Shown here: one piece after another, positions 408 through 38,123 of the stretch
Layout: each line of letters opens with the position of its first letter
How positions within the stretch are numbered: position 1 is the first letter of the stretch
NCBI GenBank assembly: GCA_045592305.1
Contig: JAZNUO010000108.1
Span: 1-59,459 of the forward strand
Direction: 5' to 3'
From: Eubacteriales bacterium
Lineage (GTDB): Bacteria; Bacillota; Clostridia; Oscillospirales; CAG-272
Length of the DNA: 59,459 nt
Program-made: the position numbers and the translations under genes
The notes under the pieces: generated by a model
The model's input: only the letters and a program-made list of their open reading frames with translations
The model's database searches: none
Told to the model about the DNA's origin: nothing

Positions 408-437
408 AATACCATGACGATTGAGGGAGGTATTCCT

Positions 438-1328: not shown

Positions 1329-1628
1329 GCGAGGAAAGCTGTTTTATCGATTCTTTGATTGGGGAAATGTACCGAGGAATGCGATCAGCAGCAAATCATT
1401 TCTCTTATTTCTTTTACAGAACTTGTCTTCGATAATATAGCTTTCTCTATTTATGCTCAATTGCAATTGCTTCTCTCACTATATCGAGAATCTCTTGAAA
1501 AGTTGTCACACGCTATTTGGGCATGCAGCTCTCCACCAAGCTGCGTGCCTCTTTCTTTGTCTGTCCTGCTATGCTATCTGGAGATCAAAATTTTTATATA
1601 GATTCCTAACCTAAATGCAAAACAACCA

Positions 1629-2027: not shown

Positions 2028-2042
2028 ACTCTCACCCCCTGA

Positions 2043-5045: not shown

Positions 5046-6109
5046 TTTACCGTCCATCCATCGTAAGAATTTGTGGGAATTCCAAAGGACTGATCTATAG
5101 GGGTTTCTACTCTTTTTTGCGCTATGATATAGATCCAATTGAATAAATCGTCATACATTGCATCTTTGATCGTTATAAACTTCTTGAGTTTGCGAAGTAG
5201 AACCAAGCTCCCATCGAATTCGCGATCCGACAGAGCAAACGGAAAATATGACAGCTTTCCTTCCCCTGCCATTTTCTTGATGATTTCAACCGAATTGCTC
5301 ATATCCCCAAAGTTTTCACCATTTGACAGCACAATCAGCCATGGCTTATAGTATGGGATCCCTTGCTTTTGAAGCTCACCGATTCTTTCTTCAAGCTTTT
5401 CCAGACTTTTGGAAATGGACAAATCCAGAAACGGAATCCCCCCGGCGAAGAATTTCTCCTTCACGATCGCAGTTTCATCAAACGGCTTTGCGACGGTACA
5501 GTTGAATCCGCTAAACAGCGTTGTCTCAAATTCAATTCGGTCAGTCAGGCCTTCGCTTTGAAGGCGCTCGTTGAAGGCAAACACCGCTTTCTTTAGACGA
5601 TCCATTTTTTCGCCCTTCATAGAAGCGCTATTATCTATGGATATACTGATTAAAAGTTTTGCTTTTTTTCCTTCTTCCGACATTTCTTCTACCTCTATTT
5701 CAACAGGAAAGCCCTTTTCGATTCTCCAAAAATTGACCTTCCCGTTGAATCCATTCTTTTTTATGACTTTTAGTTCCTTTTTGGCGTATTCCTTGTCCTC
5801 GGTAAAGATGCACATATTGCCGGCCGGCAATTCAGTAACAGATGATACTTCAATCACCAGGCCCATTTTCCGGTAATGCTCCAGAACAAACAAGCCGGCA
5901 AACGCGGCGTTTTCGCTCTCCGAAAACGAACAATACCTTTGCAGACACTCTCTCGCGGTCTTTTTTACGTACACCTTTTTGTGGCTCGCAATCAATGCGC
6001 CATACAGATCAAGCAGGAAAAAGTCCTTTTGCCCGGCCATAAGCGATGACACATCAATCAGTAATGAGGAGGCTGTAACAATGCTTTCCAGTGATGTTTT
6101 CATACGCAT
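5042..6109 (-). CDS. Second vWA-domain protein with an N-terminal extension of about 160 aa
   Basis: MIDAS motif in LLISISIDNSASMKGE. The C-terminal half reads vWA-like (YKPWLIVLSNGENFGD). The start is 6109, or 6103, which has better SD spacing from AAGGA. It lies 5 nt after the stop of the 593-aa gene. Confidence 0.8.
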   Translation of the reverse strand: MRMKTSLESIVTASSLLIDVSSLMAGQKDFFLLDLYGALIASHKKVYVKKTARECLQRYCSFSESENAAFAGLFVLEHYRKMGLVIEVSSVTELPAGNMCIFTEDKEYAKKELKVIKKNGFNGKVNFWRIEKGFPVEIEVEEMSEEGKKAKLLISISIDNSASMKGEKMDRLKKAVFAFNERLQSEGLTDRIEFETTLFSGFNCTVAKPFDETAIVKEKFFAGGIPFLDLSISKSLEKLEERIGELQKQGIPYYKPWLIVLSNGENFGDMSNSVEIIKKMAGEGKLSYFPFALSDREFDGSLVLLRKLKKFITIKDAMYDDLFNWIYIIAQKRVETPIDQSFGIPTNSYDGWTVK

Positions 6110-6114
6110 ATTCC

Positions 6115-7896: not shown

Positions 7897-7897
7897 A

Positions 7898-10800: not shown

Positions 10801-13800
10801 CATCATCGAAGTTCTGATAGCCTGTGGTATCTTTTATGACAGGATCTTCGGCAACGGTAAAGCCAAAGGATTCCTCATAGCCATTCGTTCCCTCAATTTT
10901 GATGGTGTGATGCCCAAGAGAAACAATGCGTTCTCCATTGTACCGTTCACCGTTCAGATAAAGCGTGGCGTTTTCAATCAAACGAACCGCAATTTCTTTG
11001 CTGAACACTTTGTCTCTGTACTCTTCAACACCAGTAGGCGTAACGGTAAAGTCATAGCGCAAAATGTACCCGTTAACACCAACCATTTCGAGGGTGTGAT
11101 ATCCAACTGCACAGATTGGTGTTCCGCTCACATAGACCGCTCCGTCCAAAAGTGCTTCACAACGATCGAACTTCGGAGTCACAACTCCGACGTAGATTCC
11201 ATCATCTACAATGTCTGAAACATCGGGAATCACCGTGAATTTGAAGTCTTTCTCGTAACCGCCAACGCCCATGACCGTTAGTGTATGATAGCCTACCGTG
11301 TCAATGGTGGACTGGAAAACATAGGGCTGACCATCCAGCAGGACATAGGTGTTTTCGTCCTGATACGTGTTGGTATTATCAAGATAGATGTCAGGAACAA
11401 ACTTGGTTCCGCTTCCGTTGGATTTCAAATTCAACTTGAATTTGGCGCAATCGTCACCGCGGGAGGTAGACCCATCTTTTCGGTACGATATCGTCATCAC
11501 CTCGCCGGCGTTCAACGAAATTTCGCGTTCTGCCCACCCGGGGCTTCCCGACACATTAACGATTTCATTTCCGCCTTTCACGACAATGAGTTTATCGTAA
11601 TTTGCCTCAGACGAGACAAAATAATTCAAAGTGAGTTCAATATCAGTTTTTGCTGTTATAGTAAATACTGATGTAGAATTATTCGACTTATTCGTTGAAG
11701 TATAGACATCACCGCTCAAGGTAAATGGATAGGAACTGTCGTTCTTGATCGAAATATTTGAAGCATCAAGGAGCTTCTCAACAACGGGATCAATCACGAA
11801 TTCAATGGTTTCCACATAACCGTTTGCGCCATGAATTTCAAACTTATGATTCCCAACAACATAGCAATACGTATCGTTTGAAAACTCCCGACCGTCAAGG
11901 AAAATGCCTTCGTAATAGTCTTCAGACAAAACGCTGCTGCTGGTGCTGCTACTTCTCAGTCTCAGATAAACCCCATTTTTTGAAGTATAACTTGAACCAT
12001 TAGAAACACCGCTCCAATTTGCCTTGATGGTAAAATTCTTTTCTACCGTGTAGCCGTTCGCTCCTTCAATCGTCAGGGTGTGATAACCAATCGAATAGAC
12101 GGTTTTCGAACCGGTCAGAACCTCACCGTCAAGCTTTACCACGGTGCTGCTGAAATTGGAAAGATAATCCACGCTGACAGACTTCGAGTAGTTTACTTGC
12201 TCGCCATCAGTTATGCTCGTATTTTCCTTTCTCGTAAAAGATACGGTTTTGCTATAACCGTTTACGCCAATGATCTCAATCTCATGATTGCCAATATCAT
12301 AGATATATGATCCGGACGAGTAGGGATTGCCATTCAACTTCAAGGTTGCGTAATCACAGTAAAAACGAATATAGCTCGTGGTTTCCGTACCGTCATCCGC
12401 TCCTGAGAAGGAAGGGTTCACCGTGAATTCATAGGAATAAACATACCCATTTGTTCCGATAATCTCAACCTTATGGTATCCAACGTCATATACCCACGCG
12501 CCGGATGACCAGTTCGCTCCATTCAGCTTGATGGTTGCGTAGCTGCAGGAAATTCGGGTCTGTCCTGGTAAATACTCCTTCCCCGCTTCCGCGCCGGTGA
12601 TAGAAGGCAGAATGGTAAACTGATATTCGGAAACATATCCATTCACGCCCATAACCGTCAGGGTATGATAGCCAACGTCGTATATGGTGCTCCCGCTGGA
12701 GTAATCTTTTCCGTCCAGCATAAGCGAAGCGTTGGAAACAGATGGCTTTATACTTCCTGTGTACTCTTTACCGTTTTCAAGATTGCTGATCCTTTCTGTA
12801 ACGGTGAAGGTCAGTTCGTTTTCATATCCGTTCACACCCACGATTTTCATTGTGTGGTTGCCAACCTGATAAACAGTTGTTCCGCTTGAAAAGGCGTTGC
12901 CGTCGAGATAGAGGGTCCCGTTGCTTGTCTTAGGTACCACCGAATACTCATAGCGTCCGTTTGCCTCGATGTTCTCCCATATCTCTTTGACCGTAAAGGT
13001 GATCTCATAGTTGAACCCATTGAGATTGGCAACCGTAAGCGTGTGGTAGCCAACCTCTGTGATTGGGGATCCACTCACATACGCCTTGCCGTCCAAAAGA
13101 AGATTATTCCATTCAATTACAGGGGTTACAGAGCCTTCATATACCTGCCCGTTTTCAACTCCGCTTATGGAGGGAAAAATGTAGAATGTTACATCTGTTC
13201 TCTCCCCACCGTAAATGAACGAGAGCGTATTCTTTCCTATCGTGGTAATAGGGGCTCCCACCGTATATGCTTCACCATTGATCTCCATGTCGCAAACATT
13301 GTGAGTGATCGACATGGATTGCATATAGACGCCGTTTGCCTTGATTTCAAACTCGTCCGAAAGAACGACGAAATTGAGGGTTTGCTTATATCCCCCAATA
13401 CCGGTAACAACAAGCCTGTACACACCTTCTTCCGTAATTGCCGTTCCGGAAACATACTCTTTACCGTTCAAGGTCAACTCCCCTCCTCTTATGAGAGGCG
13501 TGACAGAACCGTAATAGACGGTCGCGTTGTGGATCCCTTGTATTTCGGGAACAATGTCAAAAGAGATCACTTCCTCATGACCGTTTTCTCCTTTGATCTT
13601 CAGCGTGTAGGTTCCCACATCGGAAAGAATCGTCCCGGAAGTAAATGCTTGACCGTTCAGCTCGATTATCCCACCAATAGCATTTACTGCCGTTCCGGAG
13701 GCGTACTTCCCGCCATTCTCCACATTGACTGTCGCGCAAATTGAGAAGCGGACCGTTTTTGTATAACCATTTTCTCCATCGACAGTCAAAACATAATCCC

Positions 13801-16738
13801 CAACTTTGGAGAGTGTGATTTCACCGGACACGTTCTCCCCATTGAGTGTCAGGGAGCAATTTTGGAAATCAATGACACACTCCGTGAGTCTTCCGTCAAA
13901 AATGGAATAATCGGGTTCAATAACAAAGTTATAGGTAAAGGTACTGTCTCCGTCCGTAAGCACGAGCTGATAATTGCCAACCTTCTCGATTACGGTATCC
14001 GGAAGAACCTCAACTCCGTTCAGGGTCGCGGTGCCCACAAATTTTAGAATTACCAAATCGTTGTAATGCGCTCCGTTCTCGATATTTGCACCTGTAACAA
14101 GCGTAAAAGTAATGGTTTCATAATAACCGTTTTCTCCGATGATCGTCAACGTGTATTCTCCCGACGTATTGATCACCGTGCCACTCGTATAGGGATTATT
14201 ATTCAGAACAAGAGTGCCGTTTGACACAGCGGGAATAATAGATTGATTGTAAGAACCTCCCTGAACAACGTTTACTTCATGAGGTCTGACCACAAAATGA
14301 ATATCCTCTCTGAACCCATCTGCGCCAAGGACCGTGATCGCGTAATAGCCGGGAATATCGATCGTTGTTCCACTAACAAAAGGCTGACCGTTCAGGGTTA
14401 TGATCCCACCAGAAATAACAGGAGTTACCTCACCAATGTAGGTTTTCCCTTGTTCTACATTCTCCACGCTCAGATTAACGGTAAACTGATACGTGACCGA
14501 ATAACCGTTTTCGCCGGTGATGACAAGGGCGTTGCGGCCAGGGGTGGTAATCAAGGTACCGCTCTCGTAGGCTTCGCCGTTTAAGGTTGCCGAACCCTTG
14601 GTGAAGGTAGGGGTCACTTCTTTCTCATAGATCCCGCCGTCGACAAGGTCTGAGACAACCGTTTCCACAACAAAATTCACGGTCTTTTGGTAACCGTTTG
14701 TTCCCGTAATCACAAGTGCATAGTTGCCGCAATTCTCGATTGGCTCGTTATGGTATGCGACGCCATTCAAGGTCATATTTTCGCCGTTTACAGCGGGGTA
14801 GAGGGTTTCATAGTATGTCCGGCCATCCTCAAGACCAACAATCGTAGTTTCAATCGTAAAGTTTATTGTTTCCTTAAAGCCATTTGCGCCTTTGATGATC
14901 AAAATATGATTGCCCTTGGTTGTGATGGGGGTCTCGCTCGTATAAGGATCACCGTCAAGCGTAATCTCCCCTCCGGAAACAGTTGGAACTACGGGCGTAT
15001 AATAAATGGTATCATTATCAACACCGTCAACTGTCAGCTCAATGGTGAAATTGATGGTCTTGGTATATCCGTTTTCTCCCGTGATAACCATTTTGCTGGC
15101 ACCGGGAATATTATACACGTCTCCGTAAGTGTAGTCCACTCCATTGATCTTTACAATTCCGCCTTCCACGTCGACTGCTTTGCTCCCGCTATAGGTTGCG
15201 CCATCTTCAAAAGTAGTGACGGGTTCAACAACTATGTTGCGGCCAATGTAATAAGTTTTGATGCCTTCATCGTCAACGGCAGTAAAGGTATAGTACGCCT
15301 GATAATTACCAGCTTGTGTTTTGTCAACCTGAGAATAATCGCACGTGAATGTTCCCAGAGATTTACCCGATGTATCATAGATTCCGACACCGTTGTAATA
15401 ATCAATCTCTTCATTTAGGTCGCAATGTAAGTCAAATGTATTTGCAAACAGCTTGATGCTGCTGATCTTTACTAATCCGCAGTAATAGTATGACGAATAA
15501 TACTGGCCGCAATAATACACGTTTCCATCATCGTCCAAATACAAATCCCTTGCAGTAAACGTCTCTTGTGTTTTTGTTTCTCCTACATATTCCAAATCAT
15601 CATTTAAGAAAACGATCGCTCGACCGTATTTTGCGACAACGTTTGTGCCGTTAACATAGATCTGCTGAATGGTACTTTCTCTATATGTAAAAGACTTTAC
15701 GATATTAAAATTACCGTCCATTTTATATATGGTTTTGCCATTGCAAAAATAGATGTGTTCGCCTTGACTCTCTTCAATGCAAGTGCTTAAAGTAAGACCG
15801 CTTTCGAAGGAAGATGTTTCCAGCGTTTCCATATCCATTCTATAAAATGTGCCAGTACTCTGTAGGGAAAATATACATCCATCTAAAACAAGCGGATTAT
15901 TGACAGGAAAACTTGTGGTTACTTGATCAGTAGACAGTTGTCTTGTGTCCGGATGATAATCCAAAACGAAAAAATTGCTCTCTCCGGACGCAAATAACGC
16001 ATATTGATTCTCATTTATTTTTTGAGTTTTAGTATATGGAGTAGTCCCCAGTGAACTATATGCAATCTTATCGCCATTGGTCCCGTCAATAATTGTAGCA
16101 TAATAGTAACCATAATAGCTGTCATAAGATAAAACTAAAAAATTACCGTCTGACAATTCCATGGCATCATACAAAGTGCTTGTCCCATAATAATAATAAA
16201 CATATTGAGAGTTTTCCCACTGCACTTCCATGTTAGAAGAATACTTGCAGAAAAACAATCGATAGTAAGACCCATTATACAACTGTCCTGCCAGTAAGAA
16301 TCCTCCATCTCTTGTGGGAACAATTCTCTCGTATCTATTACTTGAAGAACTGTAGCTGGAATACCGTTTTGTATATCTGTTCTCTTCGAGTATGTTCTCA
16401 AAAACAATGACTGTTCTGCTTGCTGTCGCCGTTTGATCCGCTCCGTTGGAAACACGATAAGACACCGTGTACGTACCCACCGCGTCTTTGTTCACCGTAT
16501 TATCAATAACGATTCGATCAGAGAGGTCCCCTTCAACCGAGTCATGTGCTATTGCACCGAATTCCTTGTATTCAGTCCCTTTCTGCAGATATATTGTCGT
16601 GTCGCCAATCAACGACAATGAAAGAGTGGATTCGTCTTCGGCAGCAGCTACCGAAACCCAGCCAATACCAATCACCATCAAGAAAGTGATAAAAAGTATT
16701 GAAGACACCAGAGTTTGTTTTTTGATTTGACGTTTCAT
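7898..16738 (-). CDS. Giant cell-surface repeat protein (about 2,946 aa): signal peptide, DUF5011-type Ig domain, Tyr-rich beta-propeller-like region, about 35 tandem ~70-aa repeats, C-terminal TM anchor
   Basis: Signal peptide MKRQIKKQTLVSSILFITFLMVIGIGWVSVAAAE. Ig domain TEYKEFGAIAHDSVEGDLSDRIVIDNTVNKDAVGTYTVSYRVSNGADQTATASRTVIV. The repeat consensus is roughly G-x-x-Y-x-x-x-V-T-P-x(5)-A-T-L-N-G-x-x-Y-x-S-G-T-x-I-x-x-x-G-x-H-T-L-x-I-x-G-x-N-G-Y-x-x-x-x-x-F-T-V. The C-terminal anchor is YVIMMSVVVGLMLVAFVVIMISRRKVL. I prefer the ATG at 16738 over the TTG at 16762. Confidence 0.85.
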   Translation of the reverse strand: MKRQIKKQTLVSSILFITFLMVIGIGWVSVAAAEDESTLSLSLIGDTTIYLQKGTEYKEFGAIAHDSVEGDLSDRIVIDNTVNKDAVGTYTVSYRVSNGADQTATASRTVIVFENILEENRYTKRYSSYSSSSNRYERIVPTRDGGFLLAGQLYNGSYYRLFFCKYSSNMEVQWENSQYVYYYYGTSTLYDAMELSDGNFLVLSYDSYYGYYYATIIDGTNGDKIAYSSLGTTPYTKTQKINENQYALFASGESNFFVLDYHPDTRQLSTDQVTTSFPVNNPLVLDGCIFSLQSTGTFYRMDMETLETSSFESGLTLSTCIEESQGEHIYFCNGKTIYKMDGNFNIVKSFTYRESTIQQIYVNGTNVVAKYGRAIVFLNDDLEYVGETKTQETFTARDLYLDDDGNVYYCGQYYSSYYYCGLVKISSIKLFANTFDLHCDLNEEIDYYNGVGIYDTSGKSLGTFTCDYSQVDKTQAGNYQAYYTFTAVDDEGIKTYYIGRNIVVEPVTTFEDGATYSGSKAVDVEGGIVKINGVDYTYGDVYNIPGASKMVITGENGYTKTINFTIELTVDGVDNDTIYYTPVVPTVSGGEITLDGDPYTSETPITTKGNHILIIKGANGFKETINFTIETTIVGLEDGRTYYETLYPAVNGENMTLNGVAYHNEPIENCGNYALVITGTNGYQKTVNFVVETVVSDLVDGGIYEKEVTPTFTKGSATLNGEAYESGTLITTPGRNALVITGENGYSVTYQFTVNLSVENVEQGKTYIGEVTPVISGGIITLNGQPFVSGTTIDIPGYYAITVLGADGFREDIHFVVRPHEVNVVQGGSYNQSIIPAVSNGTLVLNNNPYTSGTVINTSGEYTLTIIGENGYYETITFTLVTGANIENGAHYNDLVILKFVGTATLNGVEVLPDTVIEKVGNYQLVLTDGDSTFTYNFVIEPDYSIFDGRLTECVIDFQNCSLTLNGENVSGEITLSKVGDYVLTVDGENGYTKTVRFSICATVNVENGGKYASGTAVNAIGGIIELNGQAFTSGTILSDVGTYTLKIKGENGHEEVISFDIVPEIQGIHNATVYYGSVTPLIRGGELTLNGKEYVSGTAITEEGVYRLVVTGIGGYKQTLNFVVLSDEFEIKANGVYMQSMSITHNVCDMEINGEAYTVGAPITTIGKNTLSFIYGGERTDVTFYIFPSISGVENGQVYEGSVTPVIEWNNLLLDGKAYVSGSPITEVGYHTLTVANLNGFNYEITFTVKEIWENIEANGRYEYSVVPKTSNGTLYLDGNAFSSGTTVYQVGNHTMKIVGVNGYENELTFTVTERISNLENGKEYTGSIKPSVSNASLMLDGKDYSSGSTIYDVGYHTLTVMGVNGYVSEYQFTILPSITGAEAGKEYLPGQTRISCSYATIKLNGANWSSGAWVYDVGYHKVEIIGTNGYVYSYEFTVNPSFSGADDGTETTSYIRFYCDYATLKLNGNPYSSGSYIYDIGNHEIEIIGVNGYSKTVSFTRKENTSITDGEQVNYSKSVSVDYLSNFSSTVVKLDGEVLTGSKTVYSIGYHTLTIEGANGYTVEKNFTIKANWSGVSNGSSYTSKNGVYLRLRSSSTSSSVLSEDYYEGIFLDGREFSNDTYCYVVGNHKFEIHGANGYVETIEFVIDPVVEKLLDASNISIKNDSSYPFTLSGDVYTSTNKSNNSTSVFTITAKTDIELTLNYFVSSEANYDKLIVVKGGNEIVNVSGSPGWAEREISLNAGEVMTISYRKDGSTSRGDDCAKFKLNLKSNGSGTKFVPDIYLDNTNTYQDENTYVLLDGQPYVFQSTIDTVGYHTLTVMGVGGYEKDFKFTVIPDVSDIVDDGIYVGVVTPKFDRCEALLDGAVYVSGTPICAVGYHTLEMVGVNGYILRYDFTVTPTGVEEYRDKVFSKEIAVRLIENATLYLNGERYNGERIVSLGHHTIKIEGTNGYEESFGFTVAEDPVIKDTTGYQNFDDGFTTEYMINISIPHADLFIDDIAYESGTDYYTVGLHYLRIVGENGYEKEYTFILTEKIPGLVDGKEYTSLQLDCNHVVSVALNGQEVDDHTRVYLVGNYTLVVKGTNGYTNEYHFTIGPDLKNVTNEGIYNSSIAPVINAETIYLNGEAFVSGTSVANVGHHVLKIEGVGGYTHEITFTIDANIQGVENGGQYVTNVIPVFNHATATLDGKTFTSGTPILESQVGVHRLRIIGVGGYTKEYVFTVEPVVNGLSQDQIYQGSVSPIVNGGTVKLNGVEIDLNVPITAVGNHTLTIHGTNGYVHAISFTLEPVIENLRDSYSQSFQPTILGSEMTITLNGSPYVQGTEIKTVGNNKLVINGHGGYTKAFTITVDPLINGIEDNAVVFGGVSIKATPTAVLTIDGEEYTDGALYTKVGHHTVRIIGVNGYEKLIKFTLREDSSTISAVQYTEAFKLEFDPDTFSILIDGKNYSSNTAYYAIGIHELQVIGSNGYTNSYEITVIPKLNGVEHNGIYGEQVSVTTLNGTFYIDGVAYKTGDVIKSVGNHTLTMKGSGDYTYSMTFTVTPKVLGIEEGGSYSSSVTWDIPADCTATLDGASVNVHSSTQKIGHHTMVIEGANGYQTSIDFTVTESLNITDGNVYDRAMTIDIPDCSAVLNDLEISGLYELTTPGSYTLTVFGTNGYSNEYSFSVVAVLSGVADGQEYNGSVMANTSIGQWYLDDEPYVSGTLITEIGHHTLKVSGPNYEQICSFTITVDVTAYAESLKNFNFANAEIELYVDGMKYTYGELFNQVGNHTVEYRGANGYVSRAEFTIEHTYSGNADYKYQDSALIDIPNATLFVNGTKIENMTEITSIGNNVITVQGANGYERTIEIFIAPTLSVANGEERDEKISIEKLDATMYLDGVIISEDTVVNKHGTHTLRIEGANGYVEEISFTYNNPNYSYVIMMSVVVGLMLVAFVVIMISRRKVL
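8005..15250 (-). repeat. Coding tandem-repeat array (about 210-nt period, diverged copies) inside the giant surface gene
   Basis: A recurring ...NGY..x..F(T/V)(V/I) block terminus was counted about 36 times in the translation. DNA copies are diverged, with no long identical stretches seen. The array is interrupted at about 11390-11780 by a non-repeat domain. Confidence 0.75.
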
Positions 16739-16758
16739 GTCTGACCCTCGTTTCTTAA

Positions 16759-17481
16759 TCAAAGCTTCTTTCGAATCTGAGAAATGATCTCTTCTACCGA
16801 CAGCCCGCTATTATTCGCCAACAAAATGGAGATTGAGCCGCTGATTTCATCAATGGCTTTTTGCTCCTGATCAGTTGTGTATTTGGTAGGATTGGGTTTT
16901 TTATCAACTGCGGTTTCAAGTTTCAGATAATCCTCTTCTGAGTATGAAAAATCTTTTGCCTGTACCTTTTGATCAAAAATGAAAAGACTGATGGCCATCA
17001 TTTTTTCCGCCTCGTTCAGGTCGGTCAAGTGGACCTTATCTTTCCACAGCAGAAAATACTTGAAGATGCAGTGTAGAAGGCCGCTATCTTTCATCAACAG
17101 CTTCGCCAGTGTGTCATACTCGTCTTTTGTAAAGCGTTCCAAAATCAAATCCTCTCCGAGCACGTCCAATACCGCTTGTGCTCGATTGGCTCCATTCGTT
17201 TCGCCGGAAGACATCTGCGGCGCACTTTGAGAGTAGGATGACATGTCAGTTTTTTTGCCGTAGTTCTCAATCACATAGGCGTATCGTCTTTCGAAGTCCT
17301 CCTTCGTCATCTGCGCATCACCGAATAAGAAATCAAAAATCTTTTGAAACAAATTGTTTGAAAGTCTTACTCCGCTATCATAGTTTCGAATATAGGTATC
17401 AAGAGTAGGACGTGAAATATTCAGGCTGTCCGCAAATTCGGTCAATAAAATATTGTTTCTTTTCAATACCGCTTTGATCAT
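16759..17481 (-). CDS. HTH-domain transcriptional regulator (first gene of the island operon)
   Basis: N-terminus MIKAVLKRNNILLTEFADSLNISRPTLDTYIRNYDSG looks like an HTH. SD GAGGA lies 5 nt upstream of the ATG at 17481. The longer ORF-track start at 17667 would swallow the consensus promoter at 17566-17594. The stop overlaps the start region of the giant gene. Confidence 0.6.
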   Translation of the reverse strand: MIKAVLKRNNILLTEFADSLNISRPTLDTYIRNYDSGVRLSNNLFQKIFDFLFGDAQMTKEDFERRYAYVIENYGKKTDMSSYSQSAPQMSSGETNGANRAQAVLDVLGEDLILERFTKDEYDTLAKLLMKDSGLLHCIFKYFLLWKDKVHLTDLNEAEKMMAISLFIFDQKVQAKDFSYSEEDYLKLETAVDKKPNPTKYTTDQEQKAIDEISGSISILLANNSGLSVEEIISQIRKKL

Positions 17482-17565
17482 GTTTTCCTCGCATTCAAAC
17501 CGTTTTAGATGGTTTTTTGTAATATAATCTAAAATTGTAATATTTTTTACATTTTTTACACCATC

Positions 17566-17594
17566 ATTATATCGCAATATATACGGTTTGTCAA
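17566..17594 (-). promoter_or_regulatory. Perfect-consensus sigma-A promoter driving the island operon
   Basis: The minus strand reads TTGACA (17594-17589), a 17-nt spacer, then TATAAT (17571-17566). Confidence 0.65.
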
Positions 17595-17778
17595 GGGGTT
17601 TTGGAAGGTTCTTTGCTTTTTTTGTGTTATACATTGCCCCTGCTCTATCACATCTCCCCCCGCTCACATTATTTGTCCTGCGTTCTCCTCAATTGTCTTT
17701 TCACAGCATCATTCCGTTATTTCCTTTGCATTCGGCACCTCCCCTCTCCGTTCACAAAACATTTACAATTTTCTCCTC

Positions 17779-17803
17779 AAAAAAAGGACTCTCGTTAGAG
17801 TCC
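17779..17803 (-). terminator. Rho-independent terminator (minus strand)
   Basis: The minus strand reads GGACTCT-aacg-AGAGTCC followed by TTTTTTT (7-bp stem at 17786-17803, T-run at 17779-17785). Confidence 0.6.
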
Positions 17804-17978
17804 AATTATGAGAAAATTTCAGAATTTACAATTTATTCACACGTTTTTCGACCATTTTTGCCCCATTTTCGCTCTTTTTCGTCTCCGAGTCGGTTGGTGT
17901 CCCGTTGCCCGTCAAAACCGAACCTTCCCGTTTTGCCCTCGAAACGAACACCCAGACCCCCAAAAATCCATTGATAGC

Positions 17979-18012
17979 AAAAGAAAAAGTCCACAACATC
18001 GCTGTTGTGGAC
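17979..18012 (-). terminator. Rho-independent terminator immediately downstream of the tRNA 3' fragment
   Basis: Perfect 9-bp stem GTCCACAAC / GTTGTGGAC (17989-17997 and 18004-18012) with a 6-nt loop. On the minus strand it is followed by TTTTTCTTTT. Confidence 0.7.
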
Positions 18013-18083: not shown

Positions 18084-19115
18084 CTACTTATTGACTCCGT
18101 GATTGTTCAGTATTTGGGCGGCCTCCGCTACGGCTTTCTCGCGGAAGTCGGTATAAATATCCATAGTGGTAGACAACTGCTTGTGTCCAAGTACCTCTTG
18201 GATGGTCTTCGCGGGGACCCCTGCCTCGAAGGCAACGGTGGCGAAACTGTGGCGTAATTGATGGAGGGTGCAGGTGGCTCCCGTGGACTCACGGAATTTT
18301 TTGTACATGGTGTCGTATCGTTTGGCGGTAAAGTACTTTCCCGGCGCGCCGTCTGCAAAAATAATATCTGTGTCCTTGGCGGCTCCGCGTATCTTAACCA
18401 GATGCTCCTTCAGCGGGGCGAGCAAGGGTACAATGCGGACTCCTGCCGCGGTCTTTGTGGTCTTGACAAAGGGCGTGTTTCCGTCATGGGCGAGTGATTT
18501 GGATACGTGTATCAGATTTCGGGCGAGGTCAATGTCCCCCCATGTGAGGGCAAGGATCTCGCCTTTTCGCATGCCGCTCATGAGGGCGAAGAATGGGAAC
18601 AGCCACTCGTCGGCATGATCCTTGACGATCTGCTCGTCGGCCTCGGAAGCTGCGTCCCGCTTGGTCTTGCCGGTTCCCTTGGGCGGTGATACGGAGGAGC
18701 AGGGATTGTAAACGATGTCATTTTGAAGGACGGCATGATCGCAAATCAGATTGATGACCATCCGCTGGTTGGAGAGGGTCTTCTGTGCGTATGCCGCCGC
18801 GAGGCTCTTTAAAAATAGGTTAATGTCTCGGGGTGTAATGTCCTTGATGCTGAACTCTCCGAAATGGACGACTGCACGATCCATTGCAGGCCTGTACGTG
18901 CTCACGGACTGGAGAGCAAGCCGTGGCTCGGTTTCTGACCACCATTCCTCCGCTATTTCGGCAAACGTCCTTCCCTTCTCGGCTTGACCTGTATATGCCA
19001 GAATCTTGCGGTTGATCTCCCGCTCGCTCTTGCCGTAGAAGCTCTTGGTTTTTCCTGTGCGGGGGTCGGTTATCTTCTTAACGTAGCGCCCGTCAGCGCG
19101 TTTTTTTAGAGGCAT
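18084..19115 (-). CDS. int: Tyrosine-type site-specific integrase
   Basis: Catalytic-region motifs ALMSGMRKGEILALTW (Arg), HQLRHSFATV (H-x-x-R), VLGHKQLSTTMDIYTD (His and Tyr nucleophile). The N-terminal SAM-like/core-binding region is typical of phage integrases. Confidence 0.95.
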   Translation of the reverse strand: MPLKKRADGRYVKKITDPRTGKTKSFYGKSEREINRKILAYTGQAEKGRTFAEIAEEWWSETEPRLALQSVSTYRPAMDRAVVHFGEFSIKDITPRDINLFLKSLAAAYAQKTLSNQRMVINLICDHAVLQNDIVYNPCSSVSPPKGTGKTKRDAASEADEQIVKDHADEWLFPFFALMSGMRKGEILALTWGDIDLARNLIHVSKSLAHDGNTPFVKTTKTAAGVRIVPLLAPLKEHLVKIRGAAKDTDIIFADGAPGKYFTAKRYDTMYKKFRESTGATCTLHQLRHSFATVAFEAGVPAKTIQEVLGHKQLSTTMDIYTDFREKAVAEAAQILNNHGVNK

Positions 19116-31560: not shown

Positions 31561-32163
31561 ATGATTGATATTGATTGGGACAAGATCCGCGAAGAGTATA
31601 TCGCGGACGAGTCGACGTCTTACCGCAAGCTCGCGGCTAAATATGGCGTGAAGGATTATGTAATCTATCGTCGAGGTCACGCTGAAGGATGGCCTGCCCT
31701 ACGCAAGCAATGTGTAGACGAGACCATAGCAAAAGCGGTTGAAAAAATCTCCCAAAACAGGGCCAATAAGCTCGATAGCGTCATGGATGCCGCCGATCAA
31801 CTGATTAAAAAGGTAATGGACGCGATTAAAGAGCTTGACAAAAAGACGGTTAAAAAAGTCACAAGGACCAAGAAGGTCGAATACGACAATGCCAACTGTC
31901 CAGACAAGCCCACCGGGGAGACCATCACCGAGACCGAGGAGTACGAGACCATCGACGCGCTGCTTGACAGGCAGGGTATCAAGGCCCTTACCTCCGCGCT
32001 CCGTGACCTCAAGGAGGTCCTCTCCGAGCCTACCGACCTTGATAAGCGCGAGCAGGCCGCTCGGATCGCCAACCTCGAGAAGCAAGTCAACAAGGGCGAC
32101 GATGATAACGTCCGCGAGGTAGTCGTTACCTTCGCCGCGGGAAACGATGAGTGGAATGAGTAA
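31561..32163 (+). CDS. terS: Terminase small subunit
   Basis: N-terminal HTH-like IREEYIADESTSYRKLAAKYGVKDYVIYRRGHAEGW. It lies directly upstream of and overlaps the large terminase gene. SD GGAAGGAGG. Confidence 0.7.
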   Translation: MIDIDWDKIREEYIADESTSYRKLAAKYGVKDYVIYRRGHAEGWPALRKQCVDETIAKAVEKISQNRANKLDSVMDAADQLIKKVMDAIKELDKKTVKKVTRTKKVEYDNANCPDKPTGETITETEEYETIDALLDRQGIKALTSALRDLKEVLSEPTDLDKREQAARIANLEKQVNKGDDDNVREVVVTFAAGNDEWNE

Positions 32164-33577
32164 TCTTATCCTGCAACCGCCGAACGAGCGTCAGAAGCTT
32201 TTCTTGGCGGCTAAATCCAAGCATGTAGCCTACGGCGGTGCCCGAGGCGGCGGAAAATCCTGGGCAGTCAGAAACAAGGCTACGCGGCTCGCATTGCGGT
32301 ACGCTGGCATCAAGATCCTGATCGTCCGCCGCACTTACCCCGAGCTCGTCAACAACCACATCAACTTCCTGCGTGTGGATCTGCTTGGCGTTGCCAGGTA
32401 TAACACTTCCGAGAAGGTCTTCCGCTTCGTCAATGGCTCCACGATCAAGTTCGGCTACTGCAACAACGACCGCGACCTTGACCAGTATCAGGGTGCCGAG
32501 TACGATGTCATCTTCTTGGACGAGGCTACACAGCTTCAGGAGGAGTGGGTTAAGAAAATAGTGGTCTGTGTGCGTGGTGTCAACCGCTTCCCGAAGCGAA
32601 TTTATTACACAATGAACCCAGGCGGCGTATCTCACGGATACTTCAAGCGGCTGTTCATCGACCGTAAGTTTCTCGCCGGCGAGAACCCCGATGACTATGA
32701 GTTCATTCAAGCCCTCGTAACGGACAATACAGCGCTCATGGAGAGCCAACCAGAGTACAAGCAACAACTGGAGGCTCTCCCCCCGAAACTGCGCCAGGCG
32801 TGGCTGTACGGGCGATGGGACGTGTACGAGGGGCAATTCTTCGAGGACTTCCGAGAGACCCCCGATCTCGATCTGTGTGCCGCCGCCGGTATTACCCCCG
32901 AGGAGGCCTTGGAGCAGCGGAGATTCACCCACGTTATCGAGCCTTTTGACCTCAACCGAGGCCCCGCCAGAGGCTGGAACATCATGCGATCCTATGACTT
33001 CGGGTACGGCAAGCCCTTCTCGCTCGGCTATTGGGCGGTGGACTATGATGGTATCCTGTACCGCATCATGGAGATCTACGGATGTACCGAGACCCCTAAC
33101 GAGGGCGTTAAGTGGACTACTGACGAGCAATTCAGGCGTGCGGTACAGCTTGAGCGAGAGCACCCGTGGTTGCGGGGACGCAAGATCGTTGACAGCGTAG
33201 CCGATCCGTCTATCTGGGACACCTCCAGAGGAGAAAGCACGGCGGAGGTGGCGGAAAAATACCATATATACTTCTCTCCTGGCGATAACAAGCGCATTCC
33301 CGGGTGGATGCAGGTGCATTACCGCTTCCAGTTCGACGATAACGGTTACCCCCGCATGTACTTCTTCTCCAACTGCAAGGCGGCCATCCGCACCGTGCCC
33401 TTGATGAGGTACAGCGAGACGATCCCAGAGGATCTGGATACCAAGATGGAGGACCACGTGTGCGACGAGATCCGCTACATGTGCATGTCAAGGCCAGTAG
33501 TCCCCATAGCAAGTAGCACTAAAAAAATCGCTCTATCCGACCCGCTTGACCAGTTCAAAGGGCGGAAGCGAAGATAG
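32147..33577 (+). CDS. terL: Terminase large subunit
   Basis: Walker A YGGARGGGKSWA. Walker B DVIFLDEAT. C-terminal nuclease-like acidic motifs (SYDFGYGKP...DHVCDEIRY). Confidence 0.9.
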   Translation: MSGMSNLILQPPNERQKLFLAAKSKHVAYGGARGGGKSWAVRNKATRLALRYAGIKILIVRRTYPELVNNHINFLRVDLLGVARYNTSEKVFRFVNGSTIKFGYCNNDRDLDQYQGAEYDVIFLDEATQLQEEWVKKIVVCVRGVNRFPKRIYYTMNPGGVSHGYFKRLFIDRKFLAGENPDDYEFIQALVTDNTALMESQPEYKQQLEALPPKLRQAWLYGRWDVYEGQFFEDFRETPDLDLCAAAGITPEEALEQRRFTHVIEPFDLNRGPARGWNIMRSYDFGYGKPFSLGYWAVDYDGILYRIMEIYGCTETPNEGVKWTTDEQFRRAVQLEREHPWLRGRKIVDSVADPSIWDTSRGESTAEVAEKYHIYFSPGDNKRIPGWMQVHYRFQFDDNGYPRMYFFSNCKAAIRTVPLMRYSETIPEDLDTKMEDHVCDEIRYMCMSRPVVPIASSTKKIALSDPLDQFKGRKRR

Positions 33578-33586
33578 GAGTAGAAC

Positions 33587-35452
33587 ATGGACGATATCAC
33601 CAGCGCGGAGTTCTCGCCGCCTCAAGAGCCTCCCGTAGGCGCAACACGGGTCAAGGCCTTTACCCGCGTACTCCAGCAATATAAGTCGGCCAGAAGCAAG
33701 ACCGAGCGCCGCATTATCGAATCCGAGAGTTGGTGGAAGCTCCGCAACAGCGAGTTGGAGGCCGAGGTGCTCGGCAGCGGGAAAGGATTCAAAAGTTCCT
33801 CCGCGTGGATGCACAACGTCATTGCCTCCAAGCATGCCGATGTGATGGATGCTATTCCCGAGGCGACCATGCTCCCCGTAGAGGAGGGCGACAAGGCTGA
33901 GGCCGAACTCCTTACGGACATCATGCCCGTTGTCCTCGAATATAACGACTTCGAGGAGATGTACTCCACCAATGCGTGGCGCAAGCTCAAGACCGGCACC
34001 GCTTGCTATAAGGTGGTGTGGGATCAGAGCAAACTCAACGGCCTTGGTGACATACATATCACCAGCGTCAACCTGCTTGACCTGTACTGGGAGCCGGGCG
34101 TCACCAACATCAACGACTCGCGGTACATCTTCCATTGCGAGTTGATCGATAAGGACATCCTGGAGGAGCGTTACCCCCAACTGGCTGGTAATCTCAAGGT
34201 CAACACGACCACCACGGCCAAGTTCTTGTACGACGATAATGTCATTACCTCCCACAAGTGTACCGTGATAGACGTCTACTACCGCCGCGTGGTCAACGGC
34301 AAGACCGTTCTGCACTACGCCAAGTACGTGGGCGATACTGTGCTGTACGCCACGGAAAACGATCCTGAATACGCCACGAGAGGCCTATACGATCACGGCG
34401 AGTACCCGTATGTGTTCGATGCGCTCTATCCAATCGAGGGATCCCCCTGTGGCTATGGCTTCGTGGACATCTGCCGCAACCCTCAGATTGCTATTGACCT
34501 GATTCAGACCGCCGCCGTCAAGAGCGCCATGGTAGGCGCAATTCCCCGACACATCGTGAGTAATCAGGCCAAGATCAACGAGGAGGAGTTTCTCGATCTG
34601 GACGAGCCTCTTATCCACGTGGAGGGTAGCATCAACGACACGCAGTTCCGCCCGGTAGAGCACAAGTCCTTTGACCCTGTGTACAACAACATCAAGGACG
34701 GCTTAATTGCCGAGATGCGCGAGACAAGCGGCAATACCGAGACGAGTACAGGCACCACCAATTCGGGCGTGACCGCCGCCTCCGCCATCGCGGCCCTTCA
34801 GGAGGCAAGCGGCAAAGGCTCTCGTGATGCTATTGGCACCTCGTACAGAGCGTTCCGCAAGGTCGTGTCGCTGGCTATCGAGATCATTCGTCAGTTCTAC
34901 GACGCCCCCCGCCACTTCAGGATCACGGGTCAGGACGGTGTCCATAAGTTCGTCACGTACACCAATCACATGTTGCAGGAGCGGTCTCTTGGCTCGGGAT
35001 TTGGCGTGGACTTTGGCACTTACAAACCCGTGTTTGATGTCAAGGTCAAGGCCCACAAGAAGACCGCCTACTCCCGCGTTGCCCAGAACGAGCTCGCCAT
35101 CCAACTCTATGACAAGGGCATGCTCAACCCCATGATGGTGGATCAGAGCATCCTGTGCCTCAGCATGATGGACTTTGACGGTCGTGACGAGCTCATCCAG
35201 AAGCTCATGGCCAACGGCACCATGCTTCAGAAGCTGATGACTTACCTTCCCTTCGTGGTCATGTACGCCCAGGCGAACGGCGATCCCATGCTCGCGCAGG
35301 CCGCCATGCAGGACTATGAGATGTATTCGGGCGGACAAGCCCTTGCATTACCTGCTGGCGGCGGTCAGACGAGTGGCGACCCTAACCCCGAAGAGCATGG
35401 TACCGTGACCAAGGCGCGTGAGCAGTCCCGCAACGCCACGCAACCCGCATAG
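33587..35452 (+). CDS. Portal protein
   Basis: 621 aa, immediately after terL and before the protease/scaffold/capsid genes. The call rests on size and synteny. No diagnostic motif was checked. Confidence 0.8.
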   Translation: MDDITSAEFSPPQEPPVGATRVKAFTRVLQQYKSARSKTERRIIESESWWKLRNSELEAEVLGSGKGFKSSSAWMHNVIASKHADVMDAIPEATMLPVEEGDKAEAELLTDIMPVVLEYNDFEEMYSTNAWRKLKTGTACYKVVWDQSKLNGLGDIHITSVNLLDLYWEPGVTNINDSRYIFHCELIDKDILEERYPQLAGNLKVNTTTTAKFLYDDNVITSHKCTVIDVYYRRVVNGKTVLHYAKYVGDTVLYATENDPEYATRGLYDHGEYPYVFDALYPIEGSPCGYGFVDICRNPQIAIDLIQTAAVKSAMVGAIPRHIVSNQAKINEEEFLDLDEPLIHVEGSINDTQFRPVEHKSFDPVYNNIKDGLIAEMRETSGNTETSTGTTNSGVTAASAIAALQEASGKGSRDAIGTSYRAFRKVVSLAIEIIRQFYDAPRHFRITGQDGVHKFVTYTNHMLQERSLGSGFGVDFGTYKPVFDVKVKAHKKTAYSRVAQNELAIQLYDKGMLNPMMVDQSILCLSMMDFDGRDELIQKLMANGTMLQKLMTYLPFVVMYAQANGDPMLAQAAMQDYEMYSGGQALALPAGGGQTSGDPNPEEHGTVTKAREQSRNATQPA

Positions 35453-35460: not shown

Positions 35461-35775
35461 ATGATCAACGTCAAGTATAACCGCAAAGACCTTCATATCA
35501 CGGTGACGGGACACGCCTACAGTGGCGAGCCTGGGCACGATCTGATCTGCGCCGCCGCCTCTATTCTGGCGCACACAATCGCGGATATTGTGGCATCCGC
35601 GGAGGGCGAGGGACTCTGCAATTCGGCCTCTGTCCGCTTGGATAAGGGTGACGCAGAGATCTCTTGCTCCCCCGATGACACCATCCTTATCGCCATGGAC
35701 AGCGTCATGACCGGCTTCGCAATTCTCGCGAGCAATTACCCCGAGTGCGTGTCGTTCATCTGCGACGATATTTAG
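35461..35775 (+). CDS. prp: Prp-like cysteine protease (ribosomal-processing protease family, DUF464)
   Basis: ...ITVTGHAYSGEPGHDLICAAASILAHT...LASNYPECVSF contains the GHA...G-x-D-h-h-CAA-x-S His/Cys signature of Prp/YsxB. The size (104 aa) fits the family. Confidence 0.8.
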   Translation: MINVKYNRKDLHITVTGHAYSGEPGHDLICAAASILAHTIADIVASAEGEGLCNSASVRLDKGDAEISCSPDDTILIAMDSVMTGFAILASNYPECVSFICDDI

Positions 35776-35844
35776 CCGCAAGGCTTGATATATAAAGGGA
35801 CTCGCCGCCCCTATAGCGGCAGAATACAACGGAGGATATACCTC

Positions 35845-36861
35845 ATGCTTATCAGCAAAGAGCGGCTTGACCTCCAGCTCTTCGGTGCACCGGGTGACGG
35901 TGGCGACGGAGCGGGTGAGGGTGCCGCAACCAACACGGTCGCAACTCCTGCCGACGACGGGCAGCAGAAACTTCGGGACCTGGGTGTGCCCGAGGATGTT
36001 CTGCGGAGACGCAAGGCGCGCAAGGCTACCCCCAAGATCTCTCATGGCGACGAGGACGATGCTACTCCCGCCGACACCAAGCAGAGCAAGGGCAAAGCCA
36101 CCAGTCAGCCTACCGCCGCTGACACCACGACTCCCGCACCCACGGAAGCAACCCCGTCCGCCCCCTCCACAGCCACATGGGATGAATTCATGGCGATCCC
36201 CGAGAACAATCAACGCATGCAGAGCATTGTTCAAAAGCGCCTCGGATCGTCCAAGGCCGCGGAGGAATCGCTCGCTAAACTGGCCCCCGCTCTGGAGGCA
36301 CTTGCCGGGCGATATGGCATGGATCCCGCCAAACTGGACTACGATGCCCTCACGCAGGCGATCACCGATGACGACGGCAACTACGAGGAGCTTGCCCTGA
36401 AAATGGGCACGACTGTAGACCGAGCGCGTGAGATCTCCAAACAGGAGATGCAGAACCGCCGAGAGACCGCCGCCAATCATCTCCGCGAACTGGAGCAGCA
36501 GGGCGAGGCCTTGAAGAAGACCTTCCCGACATTTGATCTTCAGAGCGAGCTCCAGAATCCCATTTTCGCAAGGTTGACCGCACCCGATTCGGGCATCTCT
36601 GTGGAGGACGCCTACTTCGCCGTCCACCGACAGGACATTCTGACCGCCTCCATGGCGGCGGCTGCCAATCAGTCCGCAGAACGATTGTCCGCATCCATCC
36701 AGTCGGGTTCCAGACGCCCCATTGAGAGCGGATCGAAGGGTAGTGCTCCCACCAACACCAATTTCAGCTACCGCAACGCCAGCCGCGAGGAGAGAGCCGC
36801 TCTCAAGGCTCGAATCTTTGACGCGGCGGCAAGAGGAGAAAAGGTGTACCCCGGAGGATAA
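35845..36861 (+). CDS. Scaffolding protein with L27-like N-terminal propeptide
   Basis: MLISKERLDLQLF|GAPGDGG..., followed by a highly charged, Ala/Glu/Lys/Pro-rich helical sequence. It lies between the protease and the major capsid gene. I prefer the ATG at 35845 (SD GGAGGA) over the ORF-track start. Confidence 0.75.
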   Translation: MLISKERLDLQLFGAPGDGGDGAGEGAATNTVATPADDGQQKLRDLGVPEDVLRRRKARKATPKISHGDEDDATPADTKQSKGKATSQPTAADTTTPAPTEATPSAPSTATWDEFMAIPENNQRMQSIVQKRLGSSKAAEESLAKLAPALEALAGRYGMDPAKLDYDALTQAITDDDGNYEELALKMGTTVDRAREISKQEMQNRRETAANHLRELEQQGEALKKTFPTFDLQSELQNPIFARLTAPDSGISVEDAYFAVHRQDILTASMAAAANQSAERLSASIQSGSRRPIESGSKGSAPTNTNFSYRNASREERAALKARIFDAAARGEKVYPGG

Positions 36862-36908
36862 GCCCGTCGTGCATCTCTCCTCTGCACTACACACAAGGAG
36901 GAGAAACC

Positions 36909-38123
36909 ATGAAATCCGTTATTCCCATCATCACCACCATTTCCTTCATCAGCCACCTCGACCTCCAGCTTTTTGCAGAGGCAGGCGATGTCGTCAACAC
37001 CACCGCAGGCTATGTCAATGCCTACAACGGCAACAAGGAGAATTTCACCGCTTCCCAGACCCTCGACCCCACCATCAAGGAGTTCTACGACACCGAGCTT
37101 CTGGAGAACGCCCGCATGGAGATGTTCTTCACGCAGTTCGCGTTCAAGAAGCGTCTTCCCGCCAATTCCGGTCGGAGCATGGAGTTCCGTAAGTGGAATA
37201 CCTTTGCTCGCGCAGGCAAGCTTCAGGAGGGTGTCATTCCCACCGGACAGAAGTTCGGCATGAGCTCCAAGATGTGCTCCATCGATCAGTACGGTACCTA
37301 CGCAACCATCTCCGATGTTCTGGAACTGCACGCCTACGACCCCGTGATTCTCGGCGCCACCGAGGAGATGGGAGCATCCGCCGCCGAAACTCAGGAGGTG
37401 CTGACTCGTGACGCGCTTCTGACCAACCCCTGTGTTCTGTACTGCGACAACATCAATGTGGAGACCAACGCCAAGGTCGGCGATACACCCGTCAACTGCG
37501 CCGAGATGGAGGCCACCTCTTCTGTCAGGTCCATTCTGACCGACCGTATGGTAAACCGTGCCGCCACCTATCTCAAGAAGCATAAGGTGCCCAAGATCAA
37601 CGGTCGCTACTACGCCATTATCCATCCTTCCGTCTCCGAGGATCTTCGCAATTGCCCCGGCTGGCGCGAGGCTCATGTGTATGCCAGTCCCGAGGAGATT
37701 TTCCTGGGTGAGATCGGCGAACTGCACAAGGTTCGTTTCATCGAGGACACTGACGCGCCTGTTCTGGGAGGCACGAGATACCAGAACAAAGCCGGAACCG
37801 TCACCTACGCCACCTACTTCTTCGGTAAGGACGCTTATGGTGTCCCCGACCCCGAGGGTGGCAATCTGGAGATGATCGTCAAGACCAAGGAGCAGGTTGG
37901 CGGTCCTCTGAACCAGTTCAGCACGGTGGGCTATAAGTTCGAGACCGGTTGCATCATTCTGTACTCCGAGAGACTGCTTCGTGTCATGTCCTGCTCCGAG
38001 TACAGCGACATCGACGAGGCCACCTATTCGGCGTCTGCCGCTACCACCGAGACTCCCGATCCCGATCCCGAGACTCCCGATCCCGAGACTCCCGATTCCG
38101 AGACTCCCGATTCCGAGGAATAA
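36909..38123 (+). CDS. Major capsid protein (HK97-fold, N4-gp56-like family by recollection) with L27-like propeptide and repetitive acidic C-terminal tail
   Basis: MKSVIPIITTISFISHLDLQLF|AEAGD.... The core ...FRKWNTFARAGKLQEGVIPTGQ...QYGTYATISDV... resembles that capsid family. Strong SD AAGGAGGAG. The position after the scaffold gene fits. Confidence 0.85.
   Translation: MKSVIPIITTISFISHLDLQLFAEAGDVVNTTAGYVNAYNGNKENFTASQTLDPTIKEFYDTELLENARMEMFFTQFAFKKRLPANSGRSMEFRKWNTFARAGKLQEGVIPTGQKFGMSSKMCSIDQYGTYATISDVLELHAYDPVILGATEEMGASAAETQEVLTRDALLTNPCVLYCDNINVETNAKVGDTPVNCAEMEATSSVRSILTDRMVNRAATYLKKHKVPKINGRYYAIIHPSVSEDLRNCPGWREAHVYASPEEIFLGEIGELHKVRFIEDTDAPVLGGTRYQNKAGTVTYATYFFGKDAYGVPDPEGGNLEMIVKTKEQVGGPLNQFSTVGYKFETGCIILYSERLLRVMSCSEYSDIDEATYSASAATTETPDPDPETPDPETPDSETPDSEE
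38049..38114 (+). repeat. 15-bp tandem repeats at the 3' end of the capsid gene
   Basis: GAGACTCCCGAT(C/T)CC occurs 4 times (the first copy carries an extra CCCGAT). It encodes ETPDPDPETPDPETPDSETPDSEE. Confidence 0.9.

Follow-up and report, generated by a model that had tools for sequence, protein, structure and literature searches.

Prp has been studied both as a narrow-spectrum antibiotic target and as a host factor in capsid maturation of phage 80alpha, and the processing of the 80alpha capsid and scaffold by the host enzyme was reportedly described by Wall et al. in 2015. Host Prp cuts the capsid protein and the scaffolding protein of 80alpha between F and A, a cleavage that is not needed for viability; the leader of the scaffold is needed for assembly (Kizziah et al. 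2017, PMC5744158). These leaders mimic the extension at the N-terminus of ribosomal protein L27, which in B. subtilis starts MLRLDLQFF (PMC9405229). The peptidase family of Prp, MEROPS C108, also includes an endopeptidase of phage Cp-1 that cuts the first 48 residues off the major head protein, according to a 2025 review of MEROPS (PMC12445089), which cites Martin et al. 1998 (J Virol 72:3491). Capsid trimming by a C108 protease that the phage itself encodes is thus of an already experimentally known kind. The locus described here lies in a prophage on the 59,459-nucleotide contig JAZNUO010000108.1 of an Eubacteriales bacterium (the whole contig is called the window below) and combines Cp-1 and 80alpha features, because Cp-1 has its own C108 capsid protease and 80alpha has L27-like tags on both scaffold and capsid.

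The head operon of the window phage is ordered terminase, portal, Prp, scaffold, capsid. Its third gene encodes a 104-residue Prp-family protein, and the scaffold and capsid encoded downstream of it both start with leaders that end in LDLQLF. We consider it likely that this phage Prp cuts the two leaders and replaces a classical prohead protease. As in 80alpha, a short N-terminal leader that mimics the one on L27, with an LQxF/A-type end (a slash marks the cut point throughout), is found on both the scaffold and the capsid, the enzyme belongs to the C108 Prp type, and there is no classical prohead protease. Unlike 80alpha, which has no protease gene and borrows an essential host enzyme, the window phage has its own Prp between portal and scaffold; in addition, this temperate phage has a capsid of the N4-gp56 type and seems to be short-tailed. 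Our literature search found no paper describing a phage-encoded Prp with L27-like tags. The operon comprises the following features.

32147..33577, + strand: large terminase subunit, first gene of the head/packaging operon (Pfam Terminase_6N, 58 bits, and Terminase_3; phrog_979 and phrog_2)
33587..35452, + strand: portal protein, P22-like (PF16510, 110.6 bits; phrog_156, 241.7 bits)
35461..35775, + strand: predicted Prp-family cysteine protease, phage-encoded, 104 residues (PF04327, 45.5 bits; phrog_4478 'peptidase', 59 bits)
35845..36861, + strand: scaffolding protein, 338 residues from ATG 35845 (phrog_13908, 146.6 bits; position between the Prp and capsid genes)
35845..35883, + strand: scaffold leader MLISKERLDLQLF, 13 residues (LDLQLF at 35866-35883; predicted cut after F13, before GAPG)
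36909..38123, + strand: major capsid protein, N4-gp56 family, 404 residues, with a C-terminal ETPDP repeat tail (TIGR04387, 180.9 bits; phrog_1357, 205 bits)
36909..36974, + strand: capsid leader MKSVIPIITTISFISHLDLQLF, 22 residues (LDLQLF at 36957-36974; predicted cut after F22, before AEAG)

The enzyme and its predicted substrates

The first-pass annotation of the window had read a Prp His/Cys signature in the 104-residue open reading frame (ORF) and had placed the gene between portal and scaffold in lieu of a classical prohead protease. Hidden Markov models, conserved residues and predicted fold all agree with the signature, and no classical family appeared in scans of the head module. By profile, the ORF at 35461-35775 is a Prp-family cysteine protease (PF04327, MEROPS C108). 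Its sequence, which contains ...TVTGHAYSGEPGHDLICAAASIL... and, over a longer stretch, ...HITVTGHAYSGEPGHDLICAAASIL..., exceeds the PF04327 cut-off of 27 bits, with residues 1–97 lying on profile positions 1–89 of 90, and it aligns with the Prp chains 2G0I, 2IDL, 4PEO and 7KLD (S. mutans, S. pneumoniae, S. aureus). S. aureus Prp has an H22/C34 dyad and the hinge glycines G21 and G29, and mutants of G21, D31 and S38 are inactive (PMC9405229). The equivalents in the phage protein (G17, H18, G25, D27, C30 and S34) have the same spacing, with His and Cys 12 residues apart. All six are invariant in an alignment of 11 Prp sequences. In a larger alignment, of 54 diverse phage and host Prps, G17, H18 and C30 never vary, and conservation is 90% or higher at G25 and D27.

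The AlphaFold 2 model of the phage Prp (predicted local distance difference test score, 93.5) has the topology bbabbab (E E H E E H E), which is that of the Prp family. When used to search the Protein Data Bank (PDB), this model gave 12 significant matches (E ≤ 0.001), all of them Prp, with template-modelling (TM) scores of 0.60–0.76; the structures matched are 2G0J, 2G0I, 2IDL, 7KLD, 7JVS and 1S12, and no PDB match outside Prp fell below E 0.1. The phage enzyme thus resembles ribosomal Prp (YsxB) in fold, dyad and hinge glycines and, with its putative substrates, shares the logic of pre-L27 recognition (P1 Phe, P3 Gln, P4 and P6 Leu, small P1′). It differs in lying outside the rplU-prp-rpmA context and in belonging to a phage clade. 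The NCBIfam Prp equivalog models score it at 18–29 bits against cut-offs of 122–201 (the best, 29.3 against 166). Because these scores are under the cut-offs and the gene lies in a phage head operon, we do not read the phage Prp as the ribosomal equivalog.

In the complex of S. aureus Prp with Ac-KLNLQFF (7KLD), the P1 Phe stacks on His22, the P3 Gln holds a flexible loop, the dimer interface houses the P4 and P6 Leu, and P1′ must be small. The corresponding substrate rule that we applied to the window phage asks for an N-terminal leader of about 9–25 residues in which P1 is Phe, P3 is Gln, P4 and P6 are Leu, and P1′ is small. Both leaders follow it, the scaffold with L8-D-L-Q-L-F13/G and the capsid with L17-D-L-Q-L-F22/A, so that P1′ is G in one and A in the other. 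These motifs, followed by GAPG and AEAG, stand where the first-pass annotation had put them, and what it stated about the N-terminal extension on B. subtilis L27 and of the cutting of 80alpha capsid and scaffold by host Prp matches the papers cited above.

A six-frame search of the window gives exactly two matches to L[DSN]LQ[LF]F[AG], at the scaffold and capsid N-termini, and the extra matches gained with looser patterns are confined to short or antisense frames. The hexapeptide LDLQLF itself likewise has no other site in the six frames, and such placement is more than chance. We also scanned the long ORFs of the whole 2.2-Mb assembly with a loose pattern, counting matches no more than 60 residues from the upstream stop. 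Nine were found, among which the convincing N-terminal tags are those of the scaffold, the capsid and ribosomal protein L27; the remaining six are unconvincing as N-terminal tags. Another substrate proposed by the first-pass annotation, the giant polyvalent protein, had to be rejected: its 4,836 residues contain no match to even the loosest tag pattern tried. The capsids of Bacillus phage Pascal and Paenibacillus phage API480, more distant cultured relatives that have neither Prp nor leader, start just downstream of the predicted capsid cut point.

In the mechanism that we propose, the scaffold and capsid would be made as precursors with N-terminal leaders of 13 and 22 residues that end in L-D-L-Q-L-F. 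The phage Prp, acting as a His18/Cys30 dyad enzyme and probably as a dimer like S. aureus Prp, would bind each leader at P6–P1 and cut after Phe, and the mature proteins would begin GAPG... (scaffold) and AEAG... (capsid). In doing so it would stand in for the classical prohead protease. For the families S78, S77, S14, S49, U9 and U35 we found no Pfam match in 17 long ORFs at 21262-59454 (the giant ORF was not rescanned), and no PHROG match to a classical prohead protease among the seven head-module ORFs scanned. Like the classical enzymes (HK97 gp4/S78, T4 gp21/S77, the ClpP-like S14 and lambda C/S49), the window Prp is encoded between the portal and the scaffold and capsid genes and is predicted to trim capsid and scaffold N-termini. 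Unlike these serine enzymes of the herpesvirus-protease fold, it is a small Cys/His enzyme of unrelated fold, and it is predicted to cut at one defined tag rather than to degrade the scaffold.

The Prp ORF begins 9 nt past the portal stop, with the ribosome-binding site AGGAGGA. The scaffold ORF has an alternative TTG start upstream at 35785; ATG 35845, with GGAGGA in front of it, is taken as the true start, use of the TTG being unlikely. From this ATG the scaffold reads MLISKERLDLQLF/GAPGDGGDG..., and the capsid, from ATG 36909 with the ribosome-binding site AAGGAGGAG, reads MKSVIPIITTISFISHLDLQLF/AEAGDVVNTTAG..., its mature part beginning AEAG. Over residues 47–360 the capsid exceeds the TIGR04387 equivalog cut-off (180.9 bits against 60), which places it in the N4-gp56 family. 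Tandem ETPDP/ETPDS repeats close its C-terminus (window 38049-38123) and are seen in none of the aligned homologues.

Starting at the integrase (18084-19115), the prophage reaches the contig end or beyond. The segment left of the integrase and repressor genes, window 1-18000, has a guanine-plus-cytosine (GC) content of 43.8% and contains a gene with a Fic domain, a set of VWA / protein kinase / PP2C phosphatase genes and a 2,953-residue immunoglobulin-like surface protein. This integration flank looks like a foreign island because its GC content is far under the 57.7% of the genome.

Enzyme and tag in related phages

More than 100 phage or prophage loci have both a Prp gene and the tag, which stands on the scaffold, on the capsid and sometimes on a protein of tail-tube size. 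In 13 IMG/VR loci, with Prps 41–45% identical to that of the window, the order terminase-portal-Prp-scaffold-capsid is the same, the scaffolds keep ...WLNLQLF/AGEG, and the capsids have ...LNLQLF/ADAG in 10 of 13, that is, wherever the gene is present and in frame. The homologous scaffolds of L005-L017 are 45–48% identical and have the same leader; more distant loci have the leaders MLEFLLNKLNLQLF/AEGG and MKSFFKLFLQLF/AWTA. Leaders vary in both length (9 to 26 residues) and sequence, and the P6–P1′ boundary is constant. In the relatives L161, L167, L168, L170 and L181 the Prp gene has a place on the contig other than the one between portal and scaffold (in L161 it is about 13 kb upstream of the capsid), and the tags are LQFF or LQYF. 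In wider searches with the phage Prp, a word-indexed protein search returned 4 relatives and an exhaustive one 1,247 clusters at E ≤ 0.001, which come without genomic context; tblastn of GenBank phages, with either the phage or the host Prp as query, matched only unannotated human-gut 'Bacteriophage sp.' records.

A profile scan yielded 80 Prp-bearing viral loci, in which we counted the tag pattern [LIVMF][QH]xF[AGS]. Within 75 residues of ORF starts there were 86 matches on the Prp strand and 10 on the opposite strand, and internal positions on the Prp strand gave 9. Many loci tag a third ORF of about 155–180 residues, some 3.5 kb downstream, which in size and location is like a gene for the tail tube (for example, MLDLQLF/GNEAVQGKK and YGLQLF/AEAVAGK).

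Some phages depart from the usual tag, and do so on several proteins at once. Three proteins bear INLQLH/S, INLQLH/A (INLQLC/A in L045) and LNLQLH/A in L045 and L050; in L056 the three tags are MNLQMY/A, LLQMY/D and MNLQMY/A; and an xQIF variant is common to the tagged proteins of L071, L086 and L088. Variants found on two proteins are PQLF in L048, LQRF in L204 and MLQAF in L134. L045, L050, L056, L071 and L086-L088 are siphovirus-like phages with Prp, in each of which the scaffold, the capsid and a protein of tail-tube size (about 175 residues) bear one non-canonical tag in common. Because the tagged proteins within one such phage have a common non-canonical tag, the tags suggest that the Prps of these phages have altered P1/P2 specificity. 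Among 35 phages left after redundancy was removed at 70% Prp identity, the scaffold tag had the P1 residue of the capsid tag in 97% and its P2 residue in 83%. The agreement in shuffled pairings was 79% and 58%, and 0 of 10,000 shuffles reached the observed values. Taken together, the comparative data strongly support the prediction that enzyme and tags form a cognate protease–substrate pair.

For the capsid family itself, a capsid-profile scan gave 80 close homologues. Where the upstream sequence is long enough, most of them have both the tag and a Prp gene within 3.5 kb. Seven tagged loci have no nearby Prp gene; with the whole records scanned, Prp is found elsewhere in six, and the seventh record is 31% complete. 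A simple rule in which the presence of Prp goes with the presence of a leader is nevertheless wrong, because L189-L202, a tight group of close capsid homologues (about 50% identity), carry the leader MFKSKVGFQFF/ADAG without a Prp gene: neither the Pfam model nor the phage Prp profile found one in any of the 7 records tested, five of which are at least 92% complete. L185, also at about 50% capsid identity, has FQFF/A on the scaffold and QVFF/A on the capsid, and no Prp was found anywhere in its record. L186-L188 and L225 have degenerate leaders (MQVCH/APDAG, LMHGCC/APDAG), again with no Prp found in the records. Among sister phages with a close capsid homologue, 12 records were tested in all and Prp was found in none; six of these records are 92% complete or more.

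Two strategies thus appear to take the place of the simple rule. L189-L202 and L185 probably depend on host Prp, as 80alpha does. If Prp-less phages borrow the host enzyme, their tags would be expected to end in QFF as in host L27, and QFF, the P3–P1 of host L27, is what the Prp-less tagged phages use. A broader reading, in which proteases and tags form private, co-evolving pairs and lineages of one capsid family switch between their own Prp and that of the host, is one that we put forward tentatively, at somewhat less than an even chance.

Cp-1 orf13 (gp13; L228:8805-9119), still labelled 'hypothetical protein' in RefSeq, is like the window Prp a phage-encoded C108 protein of 104 residues. 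It aligns over its full length both with PF04327 (E 0.0024; 18.5 bits, under the Pfam cut-off) and with the phage Prp profile (hhalign probability, 90.8%). A protein of Streptococcus phage SOCP is 100% identical to it (PMC4334900), and in a fold search of viral models this uncharacterised SOCP protein matches the window Prp model with a TM score of 0.71; other matches are gut-phage proteins named 'Cysteine protease' or 'YsxB-like protein'. The 1998 study reportedly showed by experiment that gp13 removes an N-terminal propeptide from the major head protein; for the window Prp such trimming is a prediction. In addition, gp13 is very divergent, its 48-residue propeptide has no L27-like LQxF tag, its gene is not beside the scaffold and capsid genes, and the phage is phi29-like, its capsid protein being of the Phi29_MCP type. 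Should the cut lie after residue 48, the site in the Cp-1 head protein is ...ARINH/ATVPY, with His at P1 as in the LQLH phages.

To place the window Prp, we built an unrooted maximum-likelihood tree of 62 Prps, its host sample drawn from one bacterial order. A single branch with support 100/99 splits 48 phage or prophage Prps from 14 Prps of ribosomal loci, and the window Prp falls in a well-supported phage clade of 13 members. This split shows that the phage gene is not a recent capture from the sampled hosts. The tree gives no order of age for the phage and host lineages.

Host Prp and rival explanations

The host assembly carries three Prp-family genes. One stands on contig C246 in the canonical rplU-prp-rpmA arrangement, between the genes for L21 and L27. 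The comparison with host L27 and prp that the first-pass annotation had called for thus reveals a related extension: host L27 starts MLKLSLQFF/AHKKGVGSTKNG, with the mature part beginning AHKKG, and its tag LSLQFF/A differs from the phage tags at P5 and P2 only. The leader M(M)LKLSLQFF is also present in the other same-genus genomes sampled, and QFF occupies P3–P1 in 27 of the 30 host L27s sampled. Two ideas about P2 were abandoned. Leu at P2 is not an exotic, phage-specific trait, because streptococcal L27s naturally end in NLQLF; and a link between P2 preference and the equivalent of S. aureus Prp Phe42 was dropped for want of a simple rule, this residue being His in the window Prp, Tyr in relatives and Met in the host, although P2 of host L27 is Phe.

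The third Prp copy, on the minus strand of contig C363 (locus L002:1-3219), is part of another prophage of the assembly, with the order portal-Prp-scaffold-capsid. Its Prp is 123 residues long with the dyad intact, and the tag is on the capsid only (MNSNIADNTFLQHF/ASGT), the scaffold being without one. Prp copies outside the ribosomal locus are present in 22 of 24 same-genus genomes, and 23 of the 28 extra copies examined lie upstream of a tagged capsid-size ORF, mostly with ...FLQHF/A[SA]GT. Most same-genus genomes contain this FLQHF/A[SA]GT capsid family with its own Prp.

With a Prp of its own in the cell, the host might do the work that we assign to the phage enzyme: host Prp would cut the scaffold and capsid leaders as in 80alpha, and the phage copy would be redundant, a late dosage booster or insurance against differing host Prps. 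This would fit a host that has rplU-prp-rpmA and the L27 leader MLKLSLQFF/AHKKG, phage tags that conform to the general rules of bacterial Prps, and close Prp-less relatives that keep L27-like leaders and so need some other enzyme. It accounts poorly for a phage Prp gene that is intact, syntenic and conserved in well over 100 loci, for phage Prps that form an old clade of their own, and for tags such as LQLH and LQMY, which accompany phage Prps and differ from the L27 tags seen in the 30 sampled host genomes. We regard it as unlikely. Several points nonetheless weigh against cleavage by the phage enzyme. That the leaders are cut, that the phage rather than the host enzyme cuts them, and what the cutting is for are all three things that we infer. 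The host Prp could also cut the phage tags and leave the phage copy redundant, because the host tag differs at P5 and P2 only and streptococcal L27s use NLQLF. Cleavage of the 80alpha capsid and scaffold is dispensable, and phage Prp may therefore matter less than its position suggests. The co-variation test overstates independence, because the phages are related and the search pattern pre-restricts P1. Finally, the host assignment rests on the binning of one contig, because the window contig has the lowest GC content among the large contigs (50.2%, with 57.7% for the genome) and no close relative of the prophage was found in 28 same-genus genomes.

Two further explanations seem to us very improbable, each to about the same degree. 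Phage Prp might mainly target host proteins, such as pre-L27 or tagged proteins of the host or of mobile elements, and thereby tune ribosome maturation or counter defence, the leaders being incidental. The likeness of the host L27 tag to the phage tags would suit such a role; the location of the gene inside the head operon, between portal and scaffold, would not, nor would the co-variation of Prp with the leaders of neighbouring genes, and of the nine loose-pattern matches in the assembly, only L27 and the two phage proteins convince as N-terminal tags. Alternatively, the leaders might be assembly or folding signals that are never removed, beside a Prp homologue that is inactive or a chaperone. 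The 80alpha scaffold, whose leader is required for assembly and whose cleavage is dispensable (PMC5744158), offers a precedent, yet the catalytic and hinge residues of the phage Prp are all conserved, evidently under selection, and a sharply conserved P6–P1′ boundary, beside leaders that differ in sequence and in length (9 to 26 residues), marks a site of cleavage and not a folding signal.

Implications of a phage-encoded Prp

For the window itself, trimming of both leaders by the phage Prp, the reading that we prefer, would improve the annotation: the ORF could be named a head-maturation protease, the scaffold start set at 35845, and the mature N-termini of scaffold and capsid predicted. Inhibitors of Prp could also affect prophage maturation, and proteases of about 100 residues that are specific for a tag and have natural P1/P2 variants might serve as tools.

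The more interesting point is the apparent co-evolution of protease and tag, together with the apparent switching between own and host Prp within one capsid family. If our tentative reading of these patterns is true, having its own Prp would free a phage from the L27-constrained specificity of the host enzyme, with P1 and P2 drifting to His, Tyr, Met and Arg, and the tag could spread to tail-tube-sized proteins. Lineages of the capsid family would alternate between an own-Prp strategy, mostly with LQLF or LQMF, and a host-Prp strategy with the L27-like FQFF/A; the pairing of tag and enzyme could determine the hosts in which a Prp-less phage matures; and the phages would hold a naturally orthogonal set of small, tag-specific proteases.

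The window locus and its many relatives show that a large group of gut Firmicute phages possesses a Prp gene of its own, together with virion proteins that bear matching tags. The phage Prps would be a sister lineage of the bacterial ones, and they therefore may bear on the origin of the 'phage-related' protease and of the L27 extension.

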